Program-made: the position numbers and the translations under genes
The notes under the pieces: model-generated
Databases searched by the model: none
Told to the model about the DNA's origin: nothing
The model's input: the letters and a program-made list of their open reading frames with translations, nothing else
Shown here: piece by piece, positions 3,535-31,319 of the stretch
Layout: each line of letters starts with the position of its first letter
Numbering within the stretch: position 1 is the first letter of the stretch
Source of the DNA: an uncultured Muribaculaceae bacterium
Lineage (GTDB): Bacteria > Pseudomonadota > Alphaproteobacteria > Rs-D84
NCBI GenBank assembly: GCA_964576135.1
Contig: CAZNTZ010000003.1
Location: 1-52,111, forward strand
DNA: 52,111 bases
Direction: 5' to 3'

Positions 3535-5961
3535 TCATTCGTTATCAACCCTGATCTGTTGTTTCAAGTATTCTTCGACAAAATTATTTCCAAATTGTTT
3601 GTAAAGTTCTTCGGCCAAAAGCACAGATGACCGCCCAGACTCAAATAAATGCAGCAAATTGCCAAGTCCACCCAGTTCAGTATTCAAAATAACCGATTCA
3701 CCGTTTACTGGCCGTGACAAAAGCACAGCGCGTTTCAAGTGCGGATAAGCCTTACCCTGGATAAATGCCATTTCAAGTGGATTTAGTTTCCAATATTCAT
3801 AATCGCGTACGTCTGCAGCAGGATTACGAAAGAACATAACTGTCTGTGCCTGGCCACGTACAACATCACCAATTCCAAGTTTATCAATTATATTTGCTTG
3901 TTGAAATGCAGCCATATATGCTTGGCGGTTTTTTCGACCTTCTTGAAGCCCTACAATAAAATTATCGCGGAACATTTTGTTTTGCAGCATTGGCGCGGTT
4001 TCATCAATCATAATCAATGAAGGTGTCCCTTGGGCAACTGTGATACTATTTATACGATGAATTATATAGGAAACAACTGCTGGGGCCAAAACTTCGTCAG
4101 ACATTACATCTGTGAAATCAAATGTTGTCAGACGTGAATATAAATCAAGTGTATCTTTATCTTCGTTAAATATCTGCCCGTATTGCAAATCATCAACCCA
4201 CTTTTTCAATTCACCACGCATTGACCCATTTGATGAAAAACATGGTTGCCACAGATTTTTTAACTTTCTGTTTGAATTATCAACATAATCAAAATTCACC
4301 GATACAGCACGTGCAATCTCGTCTAAACTATCCGGATCTGCGGCACCAGAAATCATTTGTAACCAACGCCTTAAAAACGCACGGTTTTCATCTGAATCTT
4401 CCATTTTGAAAGGATTCATTTTTGTATCAAAATTTATTACACCTTCGCCGGCATTTTTTGATTTACCTGCAAATGTCATATATTTTCCAGATGTGGCAAG
4501 TGTAAATACTTCGGCCCCATGATTACGATCGAAAAAGAATGCTTTTAATTTAGGATGACGTAAAGATTGCGTTATCAAGAACGAGAATAAAGTTGTCTTA
4601 CCACCGCCAGTCGGGCCAATTGTCAAAGTATGTGCCACAGAAGTCGGCGCGTCAGATACATGAAATTGAAACTGATAAGGTGTCCCTTGCGCGGTTGGAA
4701 ATATCACAAGTGCGCCCGGACCCCAATCGCTGTTTGCAACACCAGTAGGTACAGATGACATTGGAATTGAAATTGCCGAAGCCTTGGATAATAATTTGAA
4801 CGATCTTGGGAATACATCAAACCCGGGGAGTTGCGCAAAAAACGAAACTTTTACCGCAAAATCTTCTATAACTGGTGCAATACCAAAACCCGCACATATT
4901 TTTTTGAAATTAGAAATATGGTTTTCGAGTTCTTCTTCGCTGTCACCAAAAATCTGGAACATTGGATAATAATTCATCATTGTTTGGGTGCCAGAAATAT
5001 TTTCATCCATAGCAAGCATTGCACCAGCAATCTGTTCTTCGGCAACATCTTGGTTTTCAGCATTTGCATCAATTGTTGATTGACGTTGTTTTATTGTCTG
5101 TTGAACCCCGGCCGCACCCATTGGTTTGAAAGCCGACATTGATATAACTTCTGTTTGAAGCGTTGCAATTTCATCAAAAAATTCTTCATCCAGAAAATCT
5201 GGTGATATTTTAAAACTCGCTATGACAGATAATTTTTTTGCCCCTGCCCCTGTATAAGAAACCCGACCATTACGTAAAAATTCAACATTATCAGTTGCTG
5301 CAATTTCAGCCATATTACCATCGGTTCTTAAAATTTGTGGTTTTGATACGGGTGATAAAATTCGACCAAATAACAAAGCAATATTATTCTTAGCATTATG
5401 TTTTAATAATGTTGGTTTATACGAAGAAAGTATTGATTCTAATAAATTTGAATAATTATTTAATTTTTCTAAATTTGAAGCTGATAAAACTATATAATAA
5501 GAATTATTAAAAATTCTTAAACCTTGACTGTTCCATTTGTCATAAATTTTTTGTAACACAGTTTGGTCAAATTCATAATCAGTGCGTTCTTCGGCAGAAT
5601 CACGAATTGTATAAAATCTGAAACTTACATTTGTGTCTTGGATTTGATTAAATAAACTTGCTCGCATTTCAAGGAATGCTTCACGTGTAACATTATCTTG
5701 CATACTTGTTTGTACACCAGAAAATTGATAAGCACAAATATATTCACCACTTTTTAAACGAACTGATTTATTATCATTTACAATTCCAGCAAATGGTAAA
5801 TATTCAGAATATTTTTTATAACCAAATTCTGGAAAAATATAACGTAACAACATTGGTGTGTAAATTAATAATAAAACAAATATTAACAAAACTGCAGCTG
5901 ACAAAGCGACCAATGTCATTGGAAAATCAGCGCTTACGAAAGATGAAAATATATTTTGCAT
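3535..5961 (-). CDS. virB4: Type IV secretion system ATPase VirB4
   Basis: 808 aa with an N-terminal TM segment, Walker A GPTGGGKTT, and IMIDETAP (Walker B-like). Size and organisation are typical of VirB4/TrbE. It directly abuts virB3. Confidence 0.9.
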   Translation of the reverse strand: MQNIFSSFVSADFPMTLVALSAAVLLIFVLLLIYTPMLLRYIFPEFGYKKYSEYLPFAGIVNDNKSVRLKSGEYICAYQFSGVQTSMQDNVTREAFLEMRASLFNQIQDTNVSFRFYTIRDSAEERTDYEFDQTVLQKIYDKWNSQGLRIFNNSYYIVLSASNLEKLNNYSNLLESILSSYKPTLLKHNAKNNIALLFGRILSPVSKPQILRTDGNMAEIAATDNVEFLRNGRVSYTGAGAKKLSVIASFKISPDFLDEEFFDEIATLQTEVISMSAFKPMGAAGVQQTIKQRQSTIDANAENQDVAEEQIAGAMLAMDENISGTQTMMNYYPMFQIFGDSEEELENHISNFKKICAGFGIAPVIEDFAVKVSFFAQLPGFDVFPRSFKLLSKASAISIPMSSVPTGVANSDWGPGALVIFPTAQGTPYQFQFHVSDAPTSVAHTLTIGPTGGGKTTLFSFLITQSLRHPKLKAFFFDRNHGAEVFTLATSGKYMTFAGKSKNAGEGVINFDTKMNPFKMEDSDENRAFLRRWLQMISGAADPDSLDEIARAVSVNFDYVDNSNRKLKNLWQPCFSSNGSMRGELKKWVDDLQYGQIFNEDKDTLDLYSRLTTFDFTDVMSDEVLAPAVVSYIIHRINSITVAQGTPSLIMIDETAPMLQNKMFRDNFIVGLQEGRKNRQAYMAAFQQANIIDKLGIGDVVRGQAQTVMFFRNPAADVRDYEYWKLNPLEMAFIQGKAYPHLKRAVLLSRPVNGESVILNTELGGLGNLLHLFESGRSSVLLAEELYKQFGNNFVEEYLKQQIRVDNE

Positions 5962-17990: not shown

Positions 17991-18356
17991 ATGGCAAGAG
18001 TTAAACGCGGAACAACCGTAAAACAAAAACACAAGAAAATATTGGATCGGGCCAAAGGTTATTTGGGTCGCCACAGTTCAACATATCGCGCCGCGCGTGA
18101 AAAGACCGAAAAAGCAGGTCAGTATTCATATCGTGACCGCAAAGTCAAAAAACGTGAGTTCAGATCACTTTGGATTATCCGTATCAATGCTGCTGCACGT
18201 AATGCAGGTCTGACATACAGCCAATTCATGAATGGACTCAAAAAAGCCGGGATTGAACTTGATCGTAAAGTTTTGGCCGAAATGGCATATGCTAATGATG
18301 CTAATTTTTCAAAATTGGTTGAATCAGCAAAACGATTTATCAAAACTGAAAAATAA
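17991..18356 (+). CDS. rplT: 50S ribosomal protein L20
   Basis: [23 protein letters not shown]. 121 aa. Confidence 0.95.
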
Positions 18357-18394
18357 CTTTTCGGTGGCGATATTTTGTATGTTATTCTAAAATG

Positions 18395-18416
18395 TCCGCC
18401 GAAAGGCGGATTTTTT
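18395..18416 (+). terminator. Rho-independent terminator/attenuator between rplT and pheS
   Basis: TCCGCC-GAAA-GGCGGA followed by T6. The T-run ends 16 nt before the pheS GTG start. Confidence 0.75.
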
Positions 18417-18432: not shown

Positions 18433-19389
18433 GTGTTAAATAAAATAAAAGAAATAAATAAATTGCCAGAGTTAAACGAGCTCTATTCGTCAGTGTTCGG
18501 TAAAAATGGCATATTAACAACCCGTTTAAAACAGATGGGGACTATGTCAAATGATGAACGAGCAACGTTAAATCGTGAAAAAGACGAACTTGCTGCCGCT
18601 TTTAAATCACGTCAGGCAGAGATTGAATATGAAACAATGATGACTGCATTGTCTGGGCAAAAAATGGATCCGAATGCAGATGTTGAAAGGTTTGATTCAA
18701 TTGGCATTGGCGGGGTTCATCCACTTACAAAATCCCTGGAAGAAATTTCAAAAATACTGAGCGATATGGGTTATGGATTACGCACAGGGCCAGAAATAGA
18801 AGATGATTGGCATAATTTTACAGCGCTTAATACTCCGCCACATCACCCTGCACGTGACATGCAAGATACCTTCTTTTTGCCAAATGGAAATGTTATGCGA
18901 ACGCAGACTTCTGCAATTCAAATTCGCAGTATGGAATCAGAGGGTGTTCCAATTTCAATTTTTGGCATCGGTGCGACATATCGTCGTGAAATGGATGCCA
19001 CACACAGTCCAATGTTTCATCAAATAGAAGGACTGCGTGTGGATAAAAATATAACATTGTCAGATCTTGTTTCCGATGTGAAAGTATTTTTAGGTCGCTT
19101 TTTTGAAATGGAAAATGTCGAATTGCGTATTCGCCCTTCGTACTTTCCATTTACAGAACCGTCTATTGAAATAGATATGAAATGGAAAAATGATAAATGG
19201 TTGGAAATTATGGGCGCCGGTATGGTTCACCCAAATGTTTTGAAAAATGTTGGTGTTGATCCAGAAATATTCCAAGGTTTTGCATTTGGTTTTGGTTGGG
19301 ACAGACTTGCCATGCTGAAATATGGTTTACCAGATTTGCGAAAATTCTTTGATATAGATATTCGTTGGTTACAAAAAAATGATTTTTAA
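18433..19389 (+). CDS. pheS: Phenylalanine--tRNA ligase alpha subunit
   Basis: HPLTK..., HPARDMQDTFF, RTQTSAIQIR and FGFGWDRLAML class II motifs. GTG start with an AAGGGA Shine-Dalgarno. Confidence 0.92.
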   Translation: MLNKIKEINKLPELNELYSSVFGKNGILTTRLKQMGTMSNDERATLNREKDELAAAFKSRQAEIEYETMMTALSGQKMDPNADVERFDSIGIGGVHPLTKSLEEISKILSDMGYGLRTGPEIEDDWHNFTALNTPPHHPARDMQDTFFLPNGNVMRTQTSAIQIRSMESEGVPISIFGIGATYRREMDATHSPMFHQIEGLRVDKNITLSDLVSDVKVFLGRFFEMENVELRIRPSYFPFTEPSIEIDMKWKNDKWLEIMGAGMVHPNVLKNVGVDPEIFQGFAFGFGWDRLAMLKYGLPDLRKFFDIDIRWLQKNDF

Positions 19390-19407: not shown

Positions 19408-21735
19408 ATGAAATTCACTCTGAATTGGTTGAAAGATTACCTGGATACAGATAAATCAGCAAACGAAATTGCTGATGTTCTTACGCGTATTGGTCTTGAA
19501 GTTGACGATGTCACAGAAACAATAGTTCCAGTTGCGGCAAAAATTGTAAGTTCCGAAGATATACCAGGAACACATTTACATAAACTGATGGTTGACGACG
19601 GATCTGGTAAATTACGCGATGTTGTTTGTGGTGCGCCAAATGCACTTGCTGGGCTAGTATCTGCGCTGGCAAAGCCGGGCTGCAAAGTTGGTGATATCGA
19701 AATCAAAGCTGGAAAGATTCGTGGTTGTTTATCAGATGGTATGATGTGCAGCGAAAAAGAACTCGGTCTTGGCGAAGATCACAGTGGAATTATAGAATTG
19801 GATGAAAAAATTGAAGAAATTGGTAAGCCAATTTCAAAGTTGGCAAATAAAATAAATACTGTATTCGAAGCAGGTATTACACCAAACCGTCCAGATTATT
19901 TAGCTGTTATCGGCATAGCCCGAGATTTATCTGCGGCTGGTATCGGTAAATTCAAGGGTTTACACGTAAAAAATCCGGCCGAATCGCAAAAAGATACAAA
20001 TGGACGCGGTGTAATTATTAAAAATGAATCTGCGTGCCCTGTTTACAGATTTTGTGAAATTCACGGTATTAAAATTGCATCATCAAATGATGTTATTGCC
20101 AACAGGTTGCTCGCAATAGGTATAAATCCTAAAAATGCACCGATAGATGTAACTAATTATTTATGTTACGATTTAGGTCAGCCAATGCATTGTTTTGATG
20201 CTGATGAAATCAAAGGCGATATTATTGTTAGAAACGCAAATCATGGTGAAAAATTCACAGATTTATTTGGCGAGACACATGAATTGTTAGAATCTGATTT
20301 GGTAATCGCGGATTCAGAAGGGATCTTAGCGCTTGCTGGAATTGTTGGTGGTGCGCGTGGTATGACCACAGAAAATACAAAAAATATAATTTTAGAAGCA
20401 GCGTATTTTGAACCAGTTGGTATTCGCAAAACTCGGACACGTTTGGGTTTAAATACTGATTCTTCGTATCGTTTTGAACGCGGAATTGATCCTGTTGTTT
20501 CAGATATGGCAATGGATTTTGCAGTAAATATGATAACAGAGCAATGCGGAGGAACAATTGTTTCGCATGGTAATAGTGCAATTGAATTAAAACCAGTTGT
20601 AATAAATTATGATTCAAATTTATTCAAAAATAAAACAGGAATAGATTTGGATTCAAAAATTCAATTAGAGATTTTGGAAAAGTTAGGTTTTTCTGTTAAA
20701 GAAACGTCTTTGATTATTGCACCATCTTGGAGACCAGATATTCAAATTCCTGAAAATTTAGTGTCAGAAGTAATCAGAATATATGGTTATGACAAAATAA
20801 AAATAATCAAAAGAGTTTATGAAACTGTAAAACTTTCTGACGAAGTTTTACCTGTTAAACATCTTTTGGCTATGCGTGGTTTCAGCGAAGGTGCTTCGTA
20901 TGGTTTTGCAGATTCGGCTGTAGAGCAAATGATTGGTTCAAAACCAAATGTTTTGATTTCAAATCCAATTGTTGAAAATATGAACACAGCCAGAAATTCT
21001 TTGATTCCAAATTTATTGATTGCAGTCGAAGAAAATTGTCGCCGTGGATTATCAAATCTTAGTTTGTTTGAACTTGGAACAGTTTTTGATGGTGATAAAC
21101 CGGGCGAACAACATGAACAACTGGCAATTGTTCGCAGCGGTCTCGCAATTGATAAAACATGGGCAAAACATGGCCGCGAAGTTGATATTTATGATATTCG
21201 GGCTGATTTGTTGGCGTTGTTTCCAGGTGCGTCCGTTCAATCTGGTGATGCACCAAAATGGGCACATCCATATCGTTACGGAAAAATTGTTTCCGGTGGA
21301 CAAGTTGTTGCTGAATTTGGCGAATTACACCCTATGGTTGCAAAAAAACTGAAAATCAAAACAACAGTAGTTATCGGGTTAATTGAAAGTGTCGAGAAAA
21401 TCAAAATTTCAGGCGGTGATTACATAAAAAGCAAACGTGGTGTGTTAATGACATCTGAATCCGATTTGTTGCCTATTACACGGGATTTTGCATTTATTGC
21501 AAATAAATCTGTCAAATCAGATGATATTGCATCAATTGCTTTGACTGCGGACCCACAAATCATAGATACAAACATATTTGACGTGTTTGATATGGGTGGT
21601 GATTCGCATTCAATTGCATTCGAAGTTTTGATACAACCAAATAAAAATTTGAATTCCGAAGAACTTATGGAAATTCAAACCAAAATTATCAATTCGGTCG
21701 AATCGAAATTTGATGCAAAAATAAGGGATAAGTAA
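19408..21735 (+). CDS. pheT: Phenylalanine--tRNA ligase beta subunit
   Basis: MKFTLNWLKDYL N-terminus, then tRNA-binding, B3/4, B5 and FDX-ACB-like regions. The ORF track starts it at TTG 19402; I prefer the ATG at 19408. Confidence 0.92.
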   Translation: MKFTLNWLKDYLDTDKSANEIADVLTRIGLEVDDVTETIVPVAAKIVSSEDIPGTHLHKLMVDDGSGKLRDVVCGAPNALAGLVSALAKPGCKVGDIEIKAGKIRGCLSDGMMCSEKELGLGEDHSGIIELDEKIEEIGKPISKLANKINTVFEAGITPNRPDYLAVIGIARDLSAAGIGKFKGLHVKNPAESQKDTNGRGVIIKNESACPVYRFCEIHGIKIASSNDVIANRLLAIGINPKNAPIDVTNYLCYDLGQPMHCFDADEIKGDIIVRNANHGEKFTDLFGETHELLESDLVIADSEGILALAGIVGGARGMTTENTKNIILEAAYFEPVGIRKTRTRLGLNTDSSYRFERGIDPVVSDMAMDFAVNMITEQCGGTIVSHGNSAIELKPVVINYDSNLFKNKTGIDLDSKIQLEILEKLGFSVKETSLIIAPSWRPDIQIPENLVSEVIRIYGYDKIKIIKRVYETVKLSDEVLPVKHLLAMRGFSEGASYGFADSAVEQMIGSKPNVLISNPIVENMNTARNSLIPNLLIAVEENCRRGLSNLSLFELGTVFDGDKPGEQHEQLAIVRSGLAIDKTWAKHGREVDIYDIRADLLALFPGASVQSGDAPKWAHPYRYGKIVSGGQVVAEFGELHPMVAKKLKIKTTVVIGLIESVEKIKISGGDYIKSKRGVLMTSESDLLPITRDFAFIANKSVKSDDIASIALTADPQIIDTNIFDVFDMGGDSHSIAFEVLIQPNKNLNSEELMEIQTKIINSVESKFDAKIRDK

Positions 21736-21742
21736 AAAACAT

Positions 21743-21769
21743 AAAACCGGTCGAAAAGACCGGTTTTTT
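21743..21769. terminator. Bidirectional hairpin terminator between the convergent genes pheT and nth
   Basis: AAAACCGGTC-GAAAA-GACCGGTTTTTT. A/T runs flank both sides. It overlaps the nth stop codon. Confidence 0.8.
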
Positions 21770-22397
21770 ATATAGTTTTATCTTTGGCGGTGCACCATTT
21801 TGCAACCGGGCATTGGTCACATTTGGGCTTTAACGCCTTGCAAATATATCGGCCATGCATGACCATTGTATGATTTGCGATTGGATAATATTTTTGCGGA
21901 ATAATTTTCATTAAAATCGCTTCGACTTTTTCGGGTGTGTTTGCAGATTCTGGAACCCAATCAAGTCGATGTGAAATTCTAAATACGTGTGTATCAACAC
22001 CAATATTTGGCGCACCCCATAAAACATTTGAAATAACATTTGCAGTCTTTTGACCGATGCCAGGTAATTTCATCAATTCATTACGATCATGTGGCAAAGA
22101 TTTTCCAACCAGCGCATTCGCCAGGCCAATAATATTTTTTGCCTTGTTATTAAAAAACGATATTACCTTGATATGTTGTTTTAATCCATCAATACCCAGG
22201 GTAATCATTTTTTCCGGTGTTCCAGCAATTTTGAATAATTCTGGGGTGACTTCGTTTACTTTTTTATCAGTTGCCTGGGCTGATAAAATAACTGCGACCG
22301 CGAAATTAAATTCGTTTGTGTAGTAAAGCTCGGATAACTTTGTCATATCCAAAGTTTTTGGAACTTCGCGAAAATAAATTTCAGGTGTCAGTGTCAT
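21768..22397 (-). CDS. nth: Endonuclease III
   Basis: HhH-GPD motif LPGIGQKTANV and a C-terminal 4Fe-4S cluster C..ALKPKCDQCPVAKWC. 209 aa. Confidence 0.92.
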   Translation of the reverse strand: MTLTPEIYFREVPKTLDMTKLSELYYTNEFNFAVAVILSAQATDKKVNEVTPELFKIAGTPEKMITLGIDGLKQHIKVISFFNNKAKNIIGLANALVGKSLPHDRNELMKLPGIGQKTANVISNVLWGAPNIGVDTHVFRISHRLDWVPESANTPEKVEAILMKIIPQKYYPIANHTMVMHGRYICKALKPKCDQCPVAKWCTAKDKTI

Positions 22398-22398
22398 T

Positions 22399-25300
22399 TT
22401 AAGCCTTGGTCATTTTAATACTGAATTTGTGCCCTTCGATTTCTGTTTGATGTTCTCCAGTACCAGGATTCATTTCAGTAATCAGCGCGTCAGATTGTAT
22501 ACGTTCAATATGATCTCTAAGCGCCTTGGCCAGTTCATCATCCGCAGCATATTCCAAAATAATACGGTCAGAAACATCCAATCCGACAGTTTTGCGGGTA
22601 TCTTGGATAAAACGCAATGCGTCATTGGCCAAACCTTCGGCAATCAATTCTGGCGTTAATTCTGTATCCAAAACAACAACCGCTGTATTATCAGTCAAAG
22701 CCGCCCCAGTAACACCCGGTTTCACGGTCAGACGGGTTTCGTATTCATCTGGCAACAACCCATATTTTTCAACAGCCGCCATTCCGTCTTTCTTGACCGC
22801 CGGGATTATTTCTTTTAACTGTCCACCCAAACGTGCCCCAATTTTCGGAGTAATTAAATAAACAAATGAATCCGCAACAGAGTTTATATCGTTAATAAAT
22901 TCAACAGACCTTACATTTAATTCGCTTTTTATAATATATGAATAATCTGTATTAAACCAACCTGCAATCTTAATTGATTGTAATGGTAATCTATTGCGTA
23001 ATTTTGATGTTTCTCTTAACTGTTTTCCGACAGACACTATGGATTGAACTTTACGCATGTCTGTGACCATATCCATTACAGATTCTGCATTAAGACCTTT
23101 AGTGTTTCTTACAAAAACTCTTTCTGGGAATTTTTCCAAGTGAACAGAATTTTTGTTGCCAGTTAAATTCATATAAATATAATCGCTTATGAATGGAGCA
23201 AAAGGTGCCAATAATTTACAAAATTCGGTCAGAACAAAATGCAATGTGTTAAAAGCATCTTGATCTTCGTTCCAGAATCTTTCGCGATTTAATCTGATGT
23301 ACCAGTTATTCAATATATCCAAAAATTGAATAAATGCAGAAACAGCGACGTCTGGTTTATAAGCATTTAAAGATTCTTCAACTCTACCTGTAAGAAAGGT
23401 AATTTCTTCCTGAATATATAAATCCAATAAATTATTGGTTTCTTTTGGATGTGTTTCAATTTTTTGTTCTTTTCTGGCGTTCGCATACAGTGTGAAAAAG
23501 TGATATGCGTTCCAAAGTGGGGTCAAGATTGTTTTAATTACTTCACCAAAAACTTTGCCTTCCTTGTCAACTGGGACTGGTTCGGCCTTCATAAAATTAG
23601 AGCCCAGGATAAACAAGCGAAATGCGTCCGCGCCGTATTTATCAAACATATCCATTGGGTCGAAATAATTTCCCAATGACTTGGACATTTTTTTCTTATG
23701 CTCGTCGACTGTCATTCCATTTGCAGATATATCTTTGAACGCTGCTTGGTCAAACAAAGCGGTTGATAAAACCATAAGTGTATAAAACCATCCACGGGTT
23801 TGATCTTGGCCTTCGATAATATAATGAGATACATAATTTGGATTTTTTTCGACAGGTTTATTATCAAATAAATGGTGATTGGTTGCATACGGCATTGATC
23901 CAGATTCGAACCATGCGTCCAATACATCAGGAATTCTTTTGTATCCATCGAATTCAATTTTATCAAGTGTTGGACGGTGCCAGTCGGTTAATTCCGCACC
24001 AAATTGCATCCGATATTTTTCACGGATTTCATCTGGGCCCAATACCATAAAATCACCGTCTTTTTCCCAAATTGGTAATGGCACACCCCAGAATCGATTA
24101 CGTGAAATTCCCCATGCGCGTGCATTTTCAATCCATTTGGCGAATCGTTCGCCGGCAGATTTCCAACTGACAGTGTTATTATTAGCAATCAGTTTTTCAC
24201 GAATCGCTGGAACATTTATGTACCAAGAATCTGTTGCACGATAAATCAGTTTTTCTTTGCTGCGCGGGCTGAATGGATAAGAGTGTTTATATTGCTCTTT
24301 TTTAACTAAAAAGCCGGCCTTTTTGATATGTTCTATGATTTTTGGATTTGCTTCGAAAATGTTTTGTCCGGCAAAGTCTGTAACCTCTGCCGTAAAGTTT
24401 CCATAATCATCAACATTTAAAATAACTGGGAATTTTGGATCCAATGCTTTGGCGGTTAAATAATCGTCTTCACCAAATGCCGGTGCGATATGAACAATTC
24501 CAGTTCCATCAGAATCTGAAACATAGTCTGCTGGGATTACGGAATACAGTTCTGGTAATTTGTAATAATCAAACAATGGTTTGTATTTTAAGCCAACCAG
24601 TTCTTTGCCAAGAATCGTTCCGATTTGTTCCGCATTTTCAAATTGTTTTGTATATGCCGACATACGGGATTCCGCAATAATATAAACATGACCGTCTGAA
24701 TCTTTCATTTCAGCGTATTTCATATCTGGATTAACAGCTAACGCGGAATTCGCCGGCAAAGTCCAAGGTGTTGTTGTCCATGCCAAAATGCGTCGACCAT
24801 CTGACAATTCAAACCAAACAGTCACGGCATCGTCTATGGCGTCTTGGTATTCGCTTGATGCTTCGGAATTAGACATGACTGTGCCTAATTTCCAATCGTA
24901 TGGATTTACTTTGAAATCTTTGTAAAGTAATCCGTCATTGTGTAGTTTTTTTAGCGCGGATATTACAGATTCCATATATTCTGGGTACATTGTGTTGTAA
25001 ACAATGTCGCCTTCGCCAATATCAACCCAACGTCCGACACGTGTTAAATAGCGATTCCATTCACCGACATATTTCATAACACCGGTTTTGCACATATCAC
25101 AGAATTTTTCCAAACCCAGTTCTGCAACCAAATCTTTGGCTTGTTTTCCAGTTGCTTTTTCAACCATGACTTCGGTTGGCAATCCATGAACATCCCAGCC
25201 CAGTTTTTGCTGAACATTTTCACCCTTCATCCAATGGTATCTGCAAACCATATCTTTGACAGCGGATACACCCATGTGACCGGCATGTGGAATTGACGAA

Positions 25301-25452
25301 GGTGTCGCTGGGCCATCAAAAAATCTGAAAACTTTGCCGTCAATGCGTGAATTACGCAAAGTATTAAAAGTTTTATTATCTTGCCATGATTTGGCAATTT
25401 GTTTTTCGATATCTAAAAAGTTCGCTTTCGGTTCGGTTTTTGGGTATGACAT
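22399..25452 (-). CDS. ileS: Isoleucine--tRNA ligase (looks like the long, eukaryote-like type 2 form)
   Basis: 1017 aa with GWDVHGLPTE, KKMSKSLGN (KMSKS), and a divergent HIGH region PHAGHMG. There is no Cys-rich zinc motif at the C-terminus. Confidence 0.9.
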   Translation of the reverse strand: MSYPKTEPKANFLDIEKQIAKSWQDNKTFNTLRNSRIDGKVFRFFDGPATPSSIPHAGHMGVSAVKDMVCRYHWMKGENVQQKLGWDVHGLPTEVMVEKATGKQAKDLVAELGLEKFCDMCKTGVMKYVGEWNRYLTRVGRWVDIGEGDIVYNTMYPEYMESVISALKKLHNDGLLYKDFKVNPYDWKLGTVMSNSEASSEYQDAIDDAVTVWFELSDGRRILAWTTTPWTLPANSALAVNPDMKYAEMKDSDGHVYIIAESRMSAYTKQFENAEQIGTILGKELVGLKYKPLFDYYKLPELYSVIPADYVSDSDGTGIVHIAPAFGEDDYLTAKALDPKFPVILNVDDYGNFTAEVTDFAGQNIFEANPKIIEHIKKAGFLVKKEQYKHSYPFSPRSKEKLIYRATDSWYINVPAIREKLIANNNTVSWKSAGERFAKWIENARAWGISRNRFWGVPLPIWEKDGDFMVLGPDEIREKYRMQFGAELTDWHRPTLDKIEFDGYKRIPDVLDAWFESGSMPYATNHHLFDNKPVEKNPNYVSHYIIEGQDQTRGWFYTLMVLSTALFDQAAFKDISANGMTVDEHKKKMSKSLGNYFDPMDMFDKYGADAFRLFILGSNFMKAEPVPVDKEGKVFGEVIKTILTPLWNAYHFFTLYANARKEQKIETHPKETNNLLDLYIQEEITFLTGRVEESLNAYKPDVAVSAFIQFLDILNNWYIRLNRERFWNEDQDAFNTLHFVLTEFCKLLAPFAPFISDYIYMNLTGNKNSVHLEKFPERVFVRNTKGLNAESVMDMVTDMRKVQSIVSVGKQLRETSKLRNRLPLQSIKIAGWFNTDYSYIIKSELNVRSVEFINDINSVADSFVYLITPKIGARLGGQLKEIIPAVKKDGMAAVEKYGLLPDEYETRLTVKPGVTGAALTDNTAVVVLDTELTPELIAEGLANDALRFIQDTRKTVGLDVSDRIILEYAADDELAKALRDHIERIQSDALITEMNPGTGEHQTEIEGHKFSIKMTKA

Positions 25453-25469
25453 TTTTTGCCTTTAATCAT

Positions 25470-25493
25470 AAAAAAACGGGCGCCTTGCGCCCG
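25470..25493 (-). terminator. Intrinsic-terminator-like hairpin plus U7 in the ileS 5' leader (candidate attenuator)
   Basis: The minus-strand RNA reads CGGGCGC-AAG-GCGCCCG followed by UUUUUUU, ending 17 nt before the ileS ATG (25452). No upstream minus-strand gene exists that it could terminate. Confidence 0.7.
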
Positions 25494-25521
25494 GCAATGT
25501 GCGTCTGGGCGTATTTGCCAA

Positions 25522-25551
25522 TTATCTTATAATAATTATTGTTTTGTTCAT
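25522..25551 (-). CDS. Candidate ileS leader peptide MNKTIIIIR
   Basis: The minus strand reads ATG AAC AAA ACA ATA ATT ATT ATA AGA TAA. Four consecutive Ile codons lie 28 nt upstream of the terminator hairpin. Confidence 0.55.
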   Translation of the reverse strand: MNKTIIIIR

Positions 25552-25595
25552 AGCACCAATTTTAATATAACTTTTTATGGAATTCCAGTTTTTTT

Positions 25596-25604
25596 ATTAT
25601 ACCA
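25596..25604 (-). promoter_or_regulatory. Extended -10 promoter element (TGGTATAAT) for the ileS leader transcript
   Basis: The minus strand reads TGgTATAAT about 45 nt upstream of the leader ATG. Confidence 0.35.
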
Positions 25605-25614
25605 TTGAAAAACT

Positions 25615-27255
25615 ATGCGAAAATTTGATGTAATCATTATTGGTGGCGGACACGCCGGGGTAGAAGCGGCAGCAGCAGCATCGCGCCGTGGCGCCCATGT
25701 GTTATTGATGACTAAATCCCAAAACGATTTAGGCGCTATGTCATGTAATCCGTCAATTGGTGGACCTGGTAAATCGCAAATGGTTGCAGAAATGGCGGCG
25801 CTGGGTGGTGTTATGCCGCGCGCAGCTGATATGGCGGGGATACAATTTAGAACACTTAATGCTGGTCATGGGCCGGCGACACGGGCCCTGCGTGCGCAGA
25901 TTGATAGAAATCTTTATCGCACCGCGATTCAAAAATTGCTGAGAAATGTTGAAATAGTTTTCGAATCCGTTGACGATTTAGATTTGGAAAATAAAATTGT
26001 AAATTCTAAATACCAAGCAGGGGCGATTGTTTTAACGACAGGAACTTTTTTACAAGGCTTGGTTACCCGTGGGGCCGAGCGAATCGAATCAGGTCGTTTG
26101 ATGGATGACGGTAAATATCAGGAAAATGATAAAAGTTTATCAAAAATACTCAAAAAAGCCGGTTTTTCACTTATGCGTTTGAAAACTGGGACACCTGCCA
26201 GACTTTATGCTGACAGTATCGACTGGTCTATTTGCGAAGAACAACAAGGTGATGATCCACATCCTTGGTTTTCATTAAATTCACAAGACGAAAAATGCAC
26301 ACAAAGGCGCAGTTGTTTTATCACACACACAACAGAAAAAACGCATCAAATAATTCGTGACAATATATCGGACGCACCAATGTATAACGGAACAATCGAA
26401 GGAATTGGTCCGCGTTATTGCCCAAGTCTCGAAGACAAAGTTATGCGTTTTCCAGAACATAAAACACACCATGTTTTTCTGGAACCAGAAACATTGGATG
26501 GCGATATAATTTATCCAAATGGTTTATCGACTTCTTTTGGCGCTGATGTTCAAGATAAATGGCTGCGCAGTGTTCCAGGACTTGAAAATGTGCGTATTGC
26601 GCGGTATGGGTATGCAATTGAATATGACGCAATTGATGCACGCGCGCTGAAAACAACATTAGAATCCAAAGATATTTCAGGAATATTTTTCGCAGGTCAA
26701 ATAAATGGAACCAGTGGTTATGAAGAAGCGGCCGCCCAGGGTTTGGTTGCAGGCGCAAATGCTGCTGCTTTTGCAATGGGAACCCAGCCAATGATATTGG
26801 ATAGAACGAATTCAATAATTGGTGTTTTGATTGACGATATAACAACAATGGGTATTGATGAACCATATCGTATGTTTATGTCGCGTGCAGAATACAGATT
26901 ACAATTGCGCAGTGATAATGCTGTATTTCGTTTGGGTAAAATCGGTGTCGAAATTGGATTGGTTTCAGTTTCTGATAATGAAAAATTAGAAAAAGAAAAT
27001 CAAAAAACATCAGCAGAAATTGATAAAATTTATGCCGGATATATTGCGCGTCAGAACCGCGAAATCGAACGATATAACGCTGATAAACATATTAAAATAC
27101 CGGCTGAATTAAACTTTTTTGAATTGTCCGGATTGACGAATGAATTAAAAGAAAAGCTTTCAAAAACGAGGCCAGAAAATATTGCAGCACTTTCCAGAAT
27201 ACCTGGAATTACCCCAGCAGGCGTTTTGGTTTTATTGCGCGCAGTTAAAAAATAA
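25615..27255 (+). CDS. mnmG: tRNA uridine 5-carboxymethylaminomethyl modification enzyme MnmG (GidA), short form
   Basis: [19 protein letters not shown] fold, [20 protein letters not shown], and a C-terminal [15 protein letters not shown]. At 546 aa it is shorter than the ~620 aa typical of MnmG. Confidence 0.9.
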
Positions 27256-28956: not shown

Positions 28957-29505
28957 TTATACTTTGCGGATTGAAAATTCGCAACCGCAATAATTTTGAC
29001 GATAAAAGCCGGTGTTTTTACCAATTTCACATCGCAAGTTTTCGTCCCAATTTATTGGCAAATAAACAATATTTAAACCCGATTTTTCAATTTCTGTTTT
29101 TGCGGCATCATCAACTTGGGATTGATCTTTGTGTTTAGACACACCAAAAACAGATGCGACAGTGTTGTATCCATTATCGACAGCCCATTTTATTCCAAAA
29201 GCGAATCTGTGACGAAAACATTCTGTGCAGCGACTGCCCCGCTCTGGTTCATTTTCTAATCCGCTTACACATTCCAACCATTTTTCATGTTCCCATTCAG
29301 ATACAAAATATTTTACCCCAATTGATTCGCAGAATTTTATCTGCTCGTTCAATCTTTTTTGATATTCTGCAAATGGAAATATATTTGGATTATAAAACAG
29401 AACGCAGAAATCAGCGCCTTGCCCCTTTAATTCTGTGATTGCCCCGGCGCTGCAAGGCGCACAGCAAGACATTAAAACAATTTTTGATTCATTATTTTTT
29501 AACAT
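28957..29505 (-). CDS. queH: Epoxyqueuosine reductase QueH (DUF208)
   Basis: N-terminal CCAPCS motif, C-terminal CxxC and YRQNYCGCEFS. 182 aa. Confidence 0.8.
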   Translation of the reverse strand: MLKNNESKIVLMSCCAPCSAGAITELKGQGADFCVLFYNPNIFPFAEYQKRLNEQIKFCESIGVKYFVSEWEHEKWLECVSGLENEPERGSRCTECFRHRFAFGIKWAVDNGYNTVASVFGVSKHKDQSQVDDAAKTEIEKSGLNIVYLPINWDENLRCEIGKNTGFYRQNYCGCEFSIRKV

Positions 29506-31189
29506 ATTTTGCTGTCATTTCGGCAATTTTATCATCATCAATTCGTGTGAACAGATTTTCTGGAACATAAAATTTTGTTTCTTCTGAAATTTTATGTTCG
29601 TATTGGTTTGGCCAACTAAAATCTTTACCATAAGATTCAATATTTAAATCATCTGTGGTTTTAGTATAATGGAAAATACGATTTATTCTAAGAGCAGTGT
29701 ATGGTATAAAAGGTTCCGAAATTCTTGAATAAAATGCTATTAATTGAAAACATTCATTCAATATCGCGCCTGCACCATCCAGGTCACTGTTTTTAATCAA
29801 TGTCCATGGTTCAGTCTTGGTCAGAAATTCATTTCCAATTGTCCAAAGTTCACGCAGAGCAGTTATTGATTTTCTGAATTCACATGCTTCTAATGCTTGT
29901 GTCAGTTCGTTTAATTTTGGATTTATTTGTTCTGCTAGATTAAATGAATTTGTCTTTGCAGCTTGTGGAATTGTATTACCAAAATTTTTATCGGTCAGTT
30001 TGGTCACACGTGAAACAAAATTTCCCAATATTCCGTTTAAATCTTTATTTACAATTTCTGCGAATCTTTGGATTGTGAAATCTGTGTCGTCCGTTTCTGG
30101 TGCAGACGCCAACAATGAATATCGCCAAGCATCACTGGGCGCATCATCTATTGCATCTTGCAAGAATATACCCCTGCCCTCTGACTTTGAAAATTTTCCA
30201 CCTTCGAAATTCAAAAAGCTTAACCCTTTGAGCATATCAACAGTTTTCCAATTGTCATTCAAAGCCAATTGTTGTTCCGGAAAAAATACTGAATGAAATT
30301 TTACATTATCTTTGCCCATAAATTGTGCATAGTGGCAATTATCTGGGTTTTTCCACCAATCTGCCCAATTTGGTGTTGCGGCTTGGGAAATTGAAACATA
30401 TCCCCATGGCGCATCAAACCATACATAAAATACTTTGTTTTCATATCCTGGTTTGTTTACTGGTATTCCCCATGGTAAGTCGCGTGTAATAGAAGTATCA
30501 CGCAATCCTTCGTTTGCCCAACCTTTTGCGATATCGCGTGCATATTTTGACCAGTGTGGTGCATGTTGTTCAAGCCAATCTTTCCATTGATTTTCAACCT
30601 TTGACGCCAGAAAGAATAAATTTTTTGTTGGGCGCATTTCAACTGGGCCACCAGTTACGGCACTTTTTGGATTCAAAAGTTCGTGCGCTTCGTACGAAGT
30701 GCTGCATTTATCGCATTGATCGCCGCGTGCTTTGTCATATCCGCATTTTGGACATGTTCCGATAAGTTGTCTGTCGGCAAGAAACATGTTGTCTGTTATT
30801 CCAAAAGGTTGAATTGTTTCACGTTCTTCGATCAGTCCCAGTGAATCCAAACGTGTGAATAAACCTTGGATCAGTTTTTCTTGTAATTCTGTATGTGTAC
30901 GTCCGTATAAATCAAAAGATAGATTGAAATCACTGACAGATTTCAAATGTTTTTTTAGATATTTATTATTGTATTCCAATACTGGCATATTTTCAGCAGC
31001 AGCACCAACTATCGCAGGGGTGCCGTGTTCATCAGCCCCGCATACAAATAATACATTTTCTGCGCTATATTTCGCACGGCAAAAACGCGCATAAACATCG
31101 GATGGTAAATAACATCCAACCAGATGTCCCAGATGAAGTTCGCCATTCACATACGGCAATGCGCTGGTTATCAAATACTTTTTCTGCAT
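29492..31189 (-). CDS. metG: Methionine--tRNA ligase
   Basis: ITSALPYVNGELHLGHL (HIGH), a zinc knuckle CPKCG...CDKC, and KFSKSEGRG (KMSKS). I prefer the ATG at 31189, preceded by AAAGGA, over the TTG at 31210. Confidence 0.92.
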   Translation of the reverse strand: MQKKYLITSALPYVNGELHLGHLVGCYLPSDVYARFCRAKYSAENVLFVCGADEHGTPAIVGAAAENMPVLEYNNKYLKKHLKSVSDFNLSFDLYGRTHTELQEKLIQGLFTRLDSLGLIEERETIQPFGITDNMFLADRQLIGTCPKCGYDKARGDQCDKCSTSYEAHELLNPKSAVTGGPVEMRPTKNLFFLASKVENQWKDWLEQHAPHWSKYARDIAKGWANEGLRDTSITRDLPWGIPVNKPGYENKVFYVWFDAPWGYVSISQAATPNWADWWKNPDNCHYAQFMGKDNVKFHSVFFPEQQLALNDNWKTVDMLKGLSFLNFEGGKFSKSEGRGIFLQDAIDDAPSDAWRYSLLASAPETDDTDFTIQRFAEIVNKDLNGILGNFVSRVTKLTDKNFGNTIPQAAKTNSFNLAEQINPKLNELTQALEACEFRKSITALRELWTIGNEFLTKTEPWTLIKNSDLDGAGAILNECFQLIAFYSRISEPFIPYTALRINRIFHYTKTTDDLNIESYGKDFSWPNQYEHKISEETKFYVPENLFTRIDDDKIAEMTAKYVKK

Positions 31190-31319
31190 TAAAAAATCCT
31201 TTTGAGTCAAAGTTTAAAGTGGAAAGTTCAAAGTGTAAAGGAAAAATAAAGAATTTATGCGCGGGTGCGCATCATGAATACAGAATAAAATGCAATGTCA
31301 TAAATCATAATTATTAAAA

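Follow-up and report, generated by a model that had tools for sequence, protein, structure and literature searches.

A probable isoleucine-codon leader-peptide attenuator ahead of ileS in a clade of uncultured low-G+C Alphaproteobacteria

T-boxes control the isoleucyl-tRNA synthetase gene ileS in Gram-positive bacteria; for most Gram-negatives, little is understood of its control. The question of how it might be regulated arises at a 52,111-nt stretch of DNA (contig CAZNTZ010000003.1 of assembly GCA_964576135.1; here called the window, with a G+C content of ∼36%), where the minus strand upstream of ileS carries a nine-codon open reading frame (ORF) rich in Ile codons, followed by a terminator-like hairpin. 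An earlier note had proposed that these parts form a leader-peptide attenuator. Comparison with related loci points the same way, as every relative in the clade has an Ile-run ORF, a terminator, and alternative helices ahead of ileS, whichever gene lies upstream, and the element is very probably a minimal leader-peptide attenuator acting on ileS in a large clade of uncultured low-G+C Alphaproteobacteria. That it would depend on the ribosome and sense Ile is regarded as highly likely on these comparative grounds. The fuller proposal, that Ile-tRNA supply would set transcription attenuation of ileS and the following gene, nth, with classical polarity, is favored with considerably more reserve.

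Direct reading of positions 25300-25800 confirmed that the extended −10 sequence TGGTATAAT, the ORF, the hairpin with its seven T residues, the AAAGG, and the ileS ATG described previously are all present on the minus strand, to which the features below belong unless stated otherwise. The regulated gene (22399..25463) comprises ileS (22399-25452) and its Shine-Dalgarno sequence AAAGG (25463-25459), with the ATG at 25452. Its 1,017-aa product matched TIGR00392 at 722 bits, and its full-length alignment to MupA/MupB models indicates that the isoleucyl-tRNA synthetase (IleRS) of the window is of type 2. The leader ORF, ATG AAC AAA ACA ATA ATT ATT ATA AGA TAA (25551-25522, stop included), encodes MNKTIIIIR. 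Four of its nine codons specify Ile, and the run ATA ATT ATT ATA (25528..25539) is the presumed sensor. The intrinsic terminator T, CGGGCGC-AAG-GCGCCCG (25493-25477) followed by U7 (25476-25470), has 7/7 G-C pairs and a predicted energy of −13.1 kcal/mol, and is the strongest terminator-like site between positions 20000 and 32000. As had been argued, no gene ends on this strand upstream of the hairpin that it could terminate, and the gap of 17 nt between the U-tract and the ileS ATG leaves no room for a separate ileS promoter. Two further helices can form. In the anti-antiterminator P1 (25493..25519), GGCAA (25519-25515) pairs with UUGCC (25497-25493) over 5 bp, while in the antiterminator AT (25488..25511), CGCCC (25511-25507) pairs with GGGCG (25492-25488), with an additional inner hairpin GCA/UGC, and takes up the 5′ arm of T. 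Both pairings had been proposed from the window, with UUGCC misplaced by one position (25498-25494). Since they are interleaved (a-b-a′-b′), P1 and AT are competing helices rather than parts of one nested structure.

Exactly one short ORF with four consecutive Ile codons occurs in the window, where 0.23 would be expected per 52 kb from second-order Markov resamples, 20% of which held at least one. The ORF alone is thus weak evidence against chance; the probability of such an ORF falling within the ∼160-nt ileS leader on the right strand is ∼4e−4 (our own arithmetic from the resamples). It is conservation and a covariance-model match, not the single sequence, that lift the element above chance.

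Among 5.8 billion proteins, the closest relative of the window IleRS shared 69% identity, and the named relatives were from metagenome-assembled genomes of uncultured “Alphaproteobacteria” or “Rickettsiales.” Genomic context was fetched for 11 IleRS proteins (12 loci; 61 to 69% identity) on the basis of protein identity alone, and all of them had the ORF, P1, AT, and T ahead of ileS, the G+C-rich hairpin and T-run lying ∼45 nt past the ORF and ileS following. A metagenome scan whose pattern joined the 3′ half of the terminator to the T-run and the opening codons of ileS, leaving the ORF out, returned 27 loci, and every one of the 26 that extended far enough upstream contained the ORF. Across the leader-bearing loci with full-length ileS, IleRS identity to the window fell from 69% to 61%, marking a clade whose synthetase has diverged to ∼61% identity, and some loci came from human-gut metagenome records. 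A covariance model built from 26 relatives, with the window excluded, matched the window at 25551-25472 over the full model length (54.5 bits; E value, ∼8e−9 by rough calibration). This was its only significant match there, the next (E value, 0.058) being an unrelated terminator, and no second copy was found by regular expressions or by the model, either elsewhere in the window or across ∼350 kb from related loci. A genome collection scanned with the one IleRS protein as query gave a single true relative, at locus L001, which shared 57% identity and had a 70-nt spacer with no leader; it was judged too distant to be informative.

The upstream neighbor differs among relatives (divergent mnmG, a tRNA-Thr(CGU) gene, a small Cys-rich ORF, or unrelated ORFs), indicating that the element travels with ileS. 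At L010 (1946-2482) and L043 (941-1486), a GNAT acetyltransferase gene lies between the terminator and ileS with the leader retained, and the attenuator there would control a GNAT-ileS operon. The tRNA-Thr(CGU) gene is directly upstream of the leader in L007, L008, L010, L012, L018, L029, L030, L039, and L041, and in several relatives its 3′ CCA end is only 11 to 20 nt ahead of the leader ATG; the window has divergent mnmG in its place. Rfam gave no family match for the leader at the gathering threshold in the window and eight relatives, with only tRNAs reaching the gathering score. In a permissive search, the best leader match was a chance one to Atu_C8 (21 bits, the gathering score being 50), and no T-box-like match appeared at E values up to 10 within 25350-25700. 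Besides having no Rfam entry, the element is liable to misannotation by gene callers. At L041 (1501-1615), the public IleRS call of 1,041 aa begins at an upstream TTG and spans the promoter, leader ORF, and terminator, with the true ileS start ∼38 codons downstream, an example of annotation hiding the leader.

The alignment of ileS upstream regions suggested in the earlier note showed the Ile-run ORF and the mutually exclusive hairpins to be conserved across 32 distinct leaders. These encode 26 distinct peptides of 9 to 10 codons with the pattern M-x3-4-(I/V/T)-I-I-I-(x)-stop. Run positions 2 to 4 are Ile in 32/32 leaders, with ATT, ATC, and ATA interchanging, and position 1 is Ile in ∼26 of the 32 by our own reading (24 in the table count, where L041 and L042 are shifted by one codon), with Val or Thr in the rest, so that replacements are confined to the run position farthest from P1. 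The TAA stop codon and the frame are intact in every leader, and the N-terminal residues vary. In L009, L041, and L042 the stop has moved 3 nt upstream, yet the spacing from the Ile run to P1 and AT is unchanged. With its near-constant length and synonymous Ile changes, the ORF has been kept as a reading frame. A different ATG (25467-25469) stands directly after the terminator U-tract (TTTTTTTATGAT...); the window there reads ATG ATT AAA GGC, and in several relatives (L023, L024, L028, L032, and L034) such an ATG begins a small ORF (M-I-I-...) running across the ileS start in another frame. It could be due to chance or be a second small ORF.

The helices are conserved along with the ORF. The minimum-energy structure of the window leader is P1 plus T (total, −18.8 kcal/mol), and with P1 masked and no 3′ arm of T present, AT (−9.3 kcal/mol) takes over as the minimum-energy structure. 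Among 24 distinct cores, 21 gave a minimum-energy fold with P1 starting 2 to 4 nt past the stop and T following at once, and the other three (L008, L011, and L012) folded into a long AT in which the conserved UGCGCUUUGGC strand pairs with GCUGGGGCGCA, the 5′ arm of T. AT was the best fold in nearly all cores once the 3′ arm of T was omitted and the first post-stop nt masked. In the relatives, predicted energies are −10 to −12 kcal/mol for P1, −15 to −17 for AT, and −8 to −14 for T (window, about −7, −9.3, and −13.1, respectively), and AT exceeds P1 in stability even with no ribosome present. The shorter AT of the window falls on the exact alignment columns of the 10- to 11-bp AT of the relatives.

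In the 24-sequence alignment, 86% of cells were paired for P1 plus T and 93% for AT, compared with 28 to 58% in slid controls (28 to 53% for AT alone). T is kept in all relatives, with 94% of cells paired. In L008, the strand common to T and AT (the 5′ arm of T) carries a G-to-A change, and both of its partners, the 3′ arm of T and the 5′ strand of AT, have compensating C-to-U changes. Homologous and longer P1 helices in the relatives still pair despite differing sequences (GGCAC/GUG-CC, GGUAAC/GUUGCU, GGCUAU/AUGGCC, ACAUGC/GCAUGU, and UAUUGCG/CGCGAUA); because MAFFT places the window P1 one register off, the P1 counts understate pairing. Relative to dinucleotide shuffles of the 24 distinct sequences, median z scores were −2.3 for the P1 region and −2.6 for the AT region, with z below −1.5 in 88% and 92% of sequences, respectively. 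RNAalifold on the core alignment recovered only the terminator and the apex of AT, since the structures compete. Overall, P1, AT, and T are three mutually exclusive conserved helices.

Where transcription would begin was examined by aligning the 60 nt upstream of the leader ATG. The extended −10 sequence TGGTATAAT (25604-25596), taken previously as the promoter, is present in the window, and a similar TTATAAAAAA stands at that place only in L015, L016, and L025. Closer to the ORF is a lineage-typical arrangement. The −35-like hexamer CTGGAA (25583..25588), preceded by an A-rich tract, agrees with TTGACA at just 3/6 positions; in most relatives, (A)CTGGAA(A)T or CTTGAx is found equally far from the leader ATG, and we infer that CTGGAA acts as a −35 element. 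The −10-like hexamer TAAAAT (25559..25564) lies 18 nt after CTGGAA and 7 nt ahead of the leader ATG. Relatives have TAAAAT, TAGAAT, TATAAA, or TAAACT after a spacer of 16 to 18 nt, and at nearly all promoter-bearing loci a −10-like hexamer with 4 to 5 of the 6 TATAAT positions ends 6 to 10 nt (mostly 7 nt) before the ATG, as in L043 (TTGACA-N17-TATAAT, 7 nt, ATG). Thus, the relevant promoter is probably CTGGAA-N18-TAAAAT rather than TGGTATAAT; the latter may serve as a second promoter or belong to an upstream region rich in A/T. From this spacing the transcript probably starts at or within a few nucleotides of the leader AUG, making the ORF leaderless or near-leaderless. This would account for the lack of a Shine-Dalgarno sequence in the leader ORFs when one is present for ileS, and what the earlier note had counted as a weak point, a poor Shine-Dalgarno sequence, would then lose its force. 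A CTGGAAAT-type promoter also precedes the tRNA-Thr genes of L010, L012, and L041. In the several relatives whose ORF starts 11 to 20 nt past the 3′ end of tRNA-Thr, tRNA processing may provide a similarly short 5′ end. A 151-nt region folded from the distal promoter had an unremarkable energy (z = −1.76), and this fold was dropped once the proximal start appeared likelier.

A mechanism can be proposed from these parts. Transcription would start at or next to the AUG of the nine-codon ORF, and a ribosome would translate M-N-K-T and then the four Ile codons. P1 would fold first and block AT; with P1 and T folded, the transcript would end at the U-tract (25476-25470), whereas the alternative AT fold would sequester the 5′ arm of T and allow RNA polymerase to read into ileS. 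A ribosome whose front edge lay over the 5′ strand of P1 (25519-25515), and not over the AT strand (25511-25507), could bring about the switch to AT. Were Ile-tRNA scarce, a ribosome lingering on the last Ile codon (25530-25528), with its footprint reaching ∼3 to 4 nt past the stop, would melt the 5-bp P1 of the window, favoring AT and more ileS mRNA. Were it plentiful, the ribosome would leave or cover the base of AT, so that P1 and T would form and transcription stop.

To model the ribosome, the RNA was masked to 10 to 14 nt beyond the first base of the A-site codon, and P1-to-AT refolding barriers were computed for masks ending 0 to 11 nt after the stop. The median barrier was 14.7 kcal/mol with no mask (no ribosome), 11 to 12 kcal/mol at +3/+4 (last Ile codon in the A site), 6 to 8 kcal/mol at +5 to +7 (next codon in the A site), and 2.5 to 4 kcal/mol at +8/+9 (stop codon in the A site), and AT weakened for masks from +10 on. 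In the window, P1 begins at +3, and masks of +3 and +4 weakened it from about −7 to −2.9 and −0.7 kcal/mol, respectively; the barrier fell from 10 to 6.0 (+3) and 3.4 (+4) kcal/mol, with AT, which begins at +11, left intact. According to this model, a ribosome on the fourth Ile codon should melt the window P1.

Several observations weigh against the attenuator interpretation or against its polarity. The leader ORF of the window lacks a Shine-Dalgarno sequence, and its translation hinges on the leaderless start deduced from promoter spacing. The z scores of the window (−1.7 for P1 and −1.3 for AT) are among the weakest of the family, and its AT (−9.3 kcal/mol) is weaker than its T (−13.1 kcal/mol). 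Covariation is only modest, given how strongly the helices are conserved, and half of T was included in the metagenome search pattern. As to polarity, P1 starts 7 to 9 nt past the last Ile codon, leaving Ile codons 1 to 3 out of reach, and in most relatives a ribosome on the fourth would open only the outer 1 to 3 bp of P1. In the equilibrium model, the AT-favoring edge lies at +5 to +8, which corresponds to the post-run codon or the stop in the A site. With P1 wholly downstream of the stop, classical polarity is expected but not implied by the geometry.

This geometry suits an attenuator of inverted polarity, working by translation completion or as a delay line, in which Ile-tRNA shortage would bring more termination and less ileS on a stringent-like logic of not making a message that cannot be translated. 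A ribosome past the four Ile codons, on the last sense codon or the stop, would cover the 5′ strand of P1 and leave the AT strand at its front edge free, so that prompt translation would result in read-through, and delay over the Ile codons would give P1 and T time to form. We consider this a tentative possibility. P1 lies entirely past the ORF in 32/32 leaders, and the 5′ strand of AT is 8 to 9 nt after the stop (11 in the window), where the front edge of a terminating ribosome is expected. The P1-to-AT barrier is below ∼8 kcal/mol only for masks of at least +5, and the equilibrium probability of the terminator is lowest with the post-run codon or the stop in the A site. At least three consecutive Ile codons are strictly kept although only the last reaches P1, a pattern better suited to an additive delay line than to a stall-site sensor, and L009, L041, and L042, with the stop 3 nt upstream, are compatible with it. 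However, inverted polarity would place positive feedback on an essential synthetase, the opposite of what is known for leader-peptide attenuators and T-boxes; to our knowledge, none of the amino-acid-sensing leaders (pheST, trp, his, leu, thr, and ilv) or T-boxes shows such feedback. Losses of Ile are restricted to the run position most remote from P1, a gradient to be expected were closeness to P1 important; the window P1 is already abolished in the model by a ribosome on the last Ile codon, and the inverted scheme hinges on ±2 nt of assumed ribosome reach and on RNA polymerase pause sites. Classical polarity is therefore favored, on account of the negative feedback it would give an essential synthetase, the precedents known to us, this gradient, and the distance kept in L009, L041, and L042, which is that from the Ile run to P1 and AT and not that from the stop.

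Two explanations without a sensing ORF were also weighed against an Ile-sensing attenuator. The ORF might encode a small hydrophobic peptide or be untranslated, and the hairpin might be a constitutive, partly leaky terminator, such as one ending an upstream tRNA-Thr or small-RNA unit, that only fixes the ileS level. The tRNA-Thr genes 11 to 20 nt upstream of the ORF in several relatives, whose unit the terminator could end, the missing Shine-Dalgarno sequence, and the unremarkable fold of the whole leader agree with this, but the window and many relatives without an upstream tRNA keep every element, and the element accompanies ileS even where the GNAT gene has been inserted. Nor would a fixed terminator explain the in-frame ATG, the synonymously varying Ile run, and the TAA at fixed spacing, or two further helices that compete with it, and we therefore consider it improbable. 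Some synthetases autoregulate on their own leader, and the ORF might be incidental to a leader bound by IleRS itself, in the manner of thrS, or by uncharged tRNA-Ile, in the manner of a T-box; the regulation of ileS by T-boxes in Firmicutes and Actinobacteria (PMC1262725) lends this some appeal. In the window and eight relatives, however, neither a T-box nor any other Rfam family matched, the structured part of ∼45 nt is far too small for a Stem I and antiterminator bulge, inspection revealed no loop with an Ile anticodon-like or specifier motif, and the coding signature of the ORF would go unexplained. This last explanation appears the least probable of all.

Of the defining features of leader-peptide attenuators, a cognate-codon ORF, an intrinsic terminator, an exclusive antiterminator, and a maintained frame are found in the ileS leader, which can be compared with known systems. 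P1 is present too and excludes AT, but a ribosome stalled on the regulatory codons is predicted to melt it in the window and to open it only in part in most relatives. In Escherichia coli pheST, the leader peptide PheM is encoded by a 14-codon ORF with a Shine-Dalgarno sequence, and the regulatory codons overlap the first hairpin strand. Both leaders precede the cognate synthetase gene and combine a short ORF of cognate codons with alternative hairpins and an intrinsic terminator; they differ in that the ileS leader has Ile rather than Phe codons, its ORF ends 2 nt before P1, and there is no sequence relationship. The thr, ilvGMEDA, ilvBN, and trp/his/leu leaders share with it the three-helix scheme (protector 1:2, antiterminator 2:3, and terminator 3:4) and a codon-run sensor. 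These classical leaders have 14 to 32 codons, are multivalent or respond to other amino acids, control biosynthesis, and gave no Rfam match here, whereas the ileS leader has 9 to 10 codons and would sense only Ile. The ileS leader would work like these systems, the earlier note having likened it to trp, ilv, and pheST, but its P1, unlike that of trp, his, and pheST, lies wholly past the stop.

Closer in its start, and a precedent from within the Alphaproteobacteria, is trpL (rnTrpL) of Sinorhizobium meliloti, which is leaderless, its small transcript beginning at the AUG of the leader ORF, and carries three cognate codons in a row toward the end of its 14 codons (PMC10117765, PMC6614838). It senses Trp, controls trpE(G), and has an experimentally defined leaderless start, while that of the ileS leader is deduced from promoter spacing. 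Leaderless poly-Cys short ORFs of mycobacteria are reported to attenuate the downstream operon in response to the amino acid they encode (bioRxiv 10.1101/834739). As described there, they resemble the ileS leader in being leaderless short ORFs with a run of one codon and differ in phylum, amino acid, and biosynthetic targets; the ileS leader has a conserved intrinsic terminator. The pheST attenuator is mentioned in PMC1262725, where trpS and leuS leader peptides are also predicted in Streptomyces. The same work gives the T-box as the usual ileS regulator in Firmicutes and Actinobacteria. A T-box before ileS acts on the same gene in response to the same ultimate signal, tRNA-Ile charging, and in Firmicutes its output is also a choice between terminator and antiterminator, but it binds tRNA directly, takes up ∼200 nt or more, and carries Stem I and T-box motifs, none of which was found in the ileS leader.

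In Caulobacter crescentus, ribosome profiling showed an “ileS leader CDS” (CCNA_03934; coding sequence) to be translated, and a leader peptide was also found upstream of trpS (PMC4117421). Like the window element, CCNA_03934 is a small translated coding sequence before ileS in an alphaproteobacterium, if translation of the window ORF is as predicted. Its role in that paper is solely that of a negative control, and the text gives no sequence, Ile run, or mechanism for it. The Caulobacter ileS encodes 969 aa in a ribF-...-ileS-lspA context and is thus probably of a different IleRS type. Beyond this passing mention, a literature search, which was incomplete and gives absence of evidence only, turned up no account of ileS being attenuated through an Ile-codon leader; the switch is of a known kind, and for ileS no earlier description was found.

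At ∼80 nt, with a probably leaderless ORF of 9 to 10 codons, the element would be among the smallest complete attenuators, and its size would be convenient for asking what distance a ribosome has to travel before an RNA switch flips. Since the sensor codons all lie upstream of the first hairpin, polarity is an experimentally sharp question. Inverted polarity, if true, would mean that an aminoacyl-tRNA synthetase gene is under a delay-line attenuator that is stringent-like, specific for Ile, and works through a leaderless ORF of 9 to 10 codons.

The identities given previously for ileS and its neighbors mnmG and nth hold. The co-oriented nth (21768-22397) follows 1 nt after ileS, and relatives keep the gene order ileS-(dTDP-sugar isomerase)-nth. 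Between nth and the convergent pheT, the palindromic hairpin AAAACCGGTC-TTTTC-GACCGGTTTT (21743-21767) looks like a shared bidirectional terminator marking the end of the ileS-nth unit, and nth is probably the end of an operon attenuated together with ileS. On the plus strand, mnmG (25615-27255) diverges from ileS. Its product is short (546 aa), the match covering positions 1 to 472 of a 616-position model, and the MnmG proteins of relatives, at 543 to 568 aa, are short as well, so the truncated C-terminal region appears to be a trait of the clade rather than the mark of a pseudogene.

Nothing convincing by way of codon-run leaders like that of ileS was found before pheS and metG in the window, where two leader-like sites were noted. 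In the gap between rplT (ending at 18356) and pheS (GTG at 18433) on the plus strand, the region 18379-18416 contains a mini-ORF, ATG TTA TTC TAA (M-L-F), and then a hairpin, TCCGCCG-AA-AGGCGGA (18395-18410), with T6 (18411-18416). Its position is that of the E. coli pheST attenuator, but it has a single Phe codon, and the hairpin may simply be the rplT terminator. On the minus strand, a short ORF, ATG ATG CGC ACC CGC GCA TAA (MMRTRA; 31255-31275), contains the hairpin ATGCGC-ACCC-GCGCAT with no clean T-run and lies ∼45 nt upstream of metG (29492-31210, minus strand) and downstream of a tRNA-Val gene. At the left end of the window, a minus-strand gene (3535-5961) encodes an 808-aa type IV secretion ATPase resembling VirB4/TrbE, a hint that genes for conjugation or secretion are clustered there.

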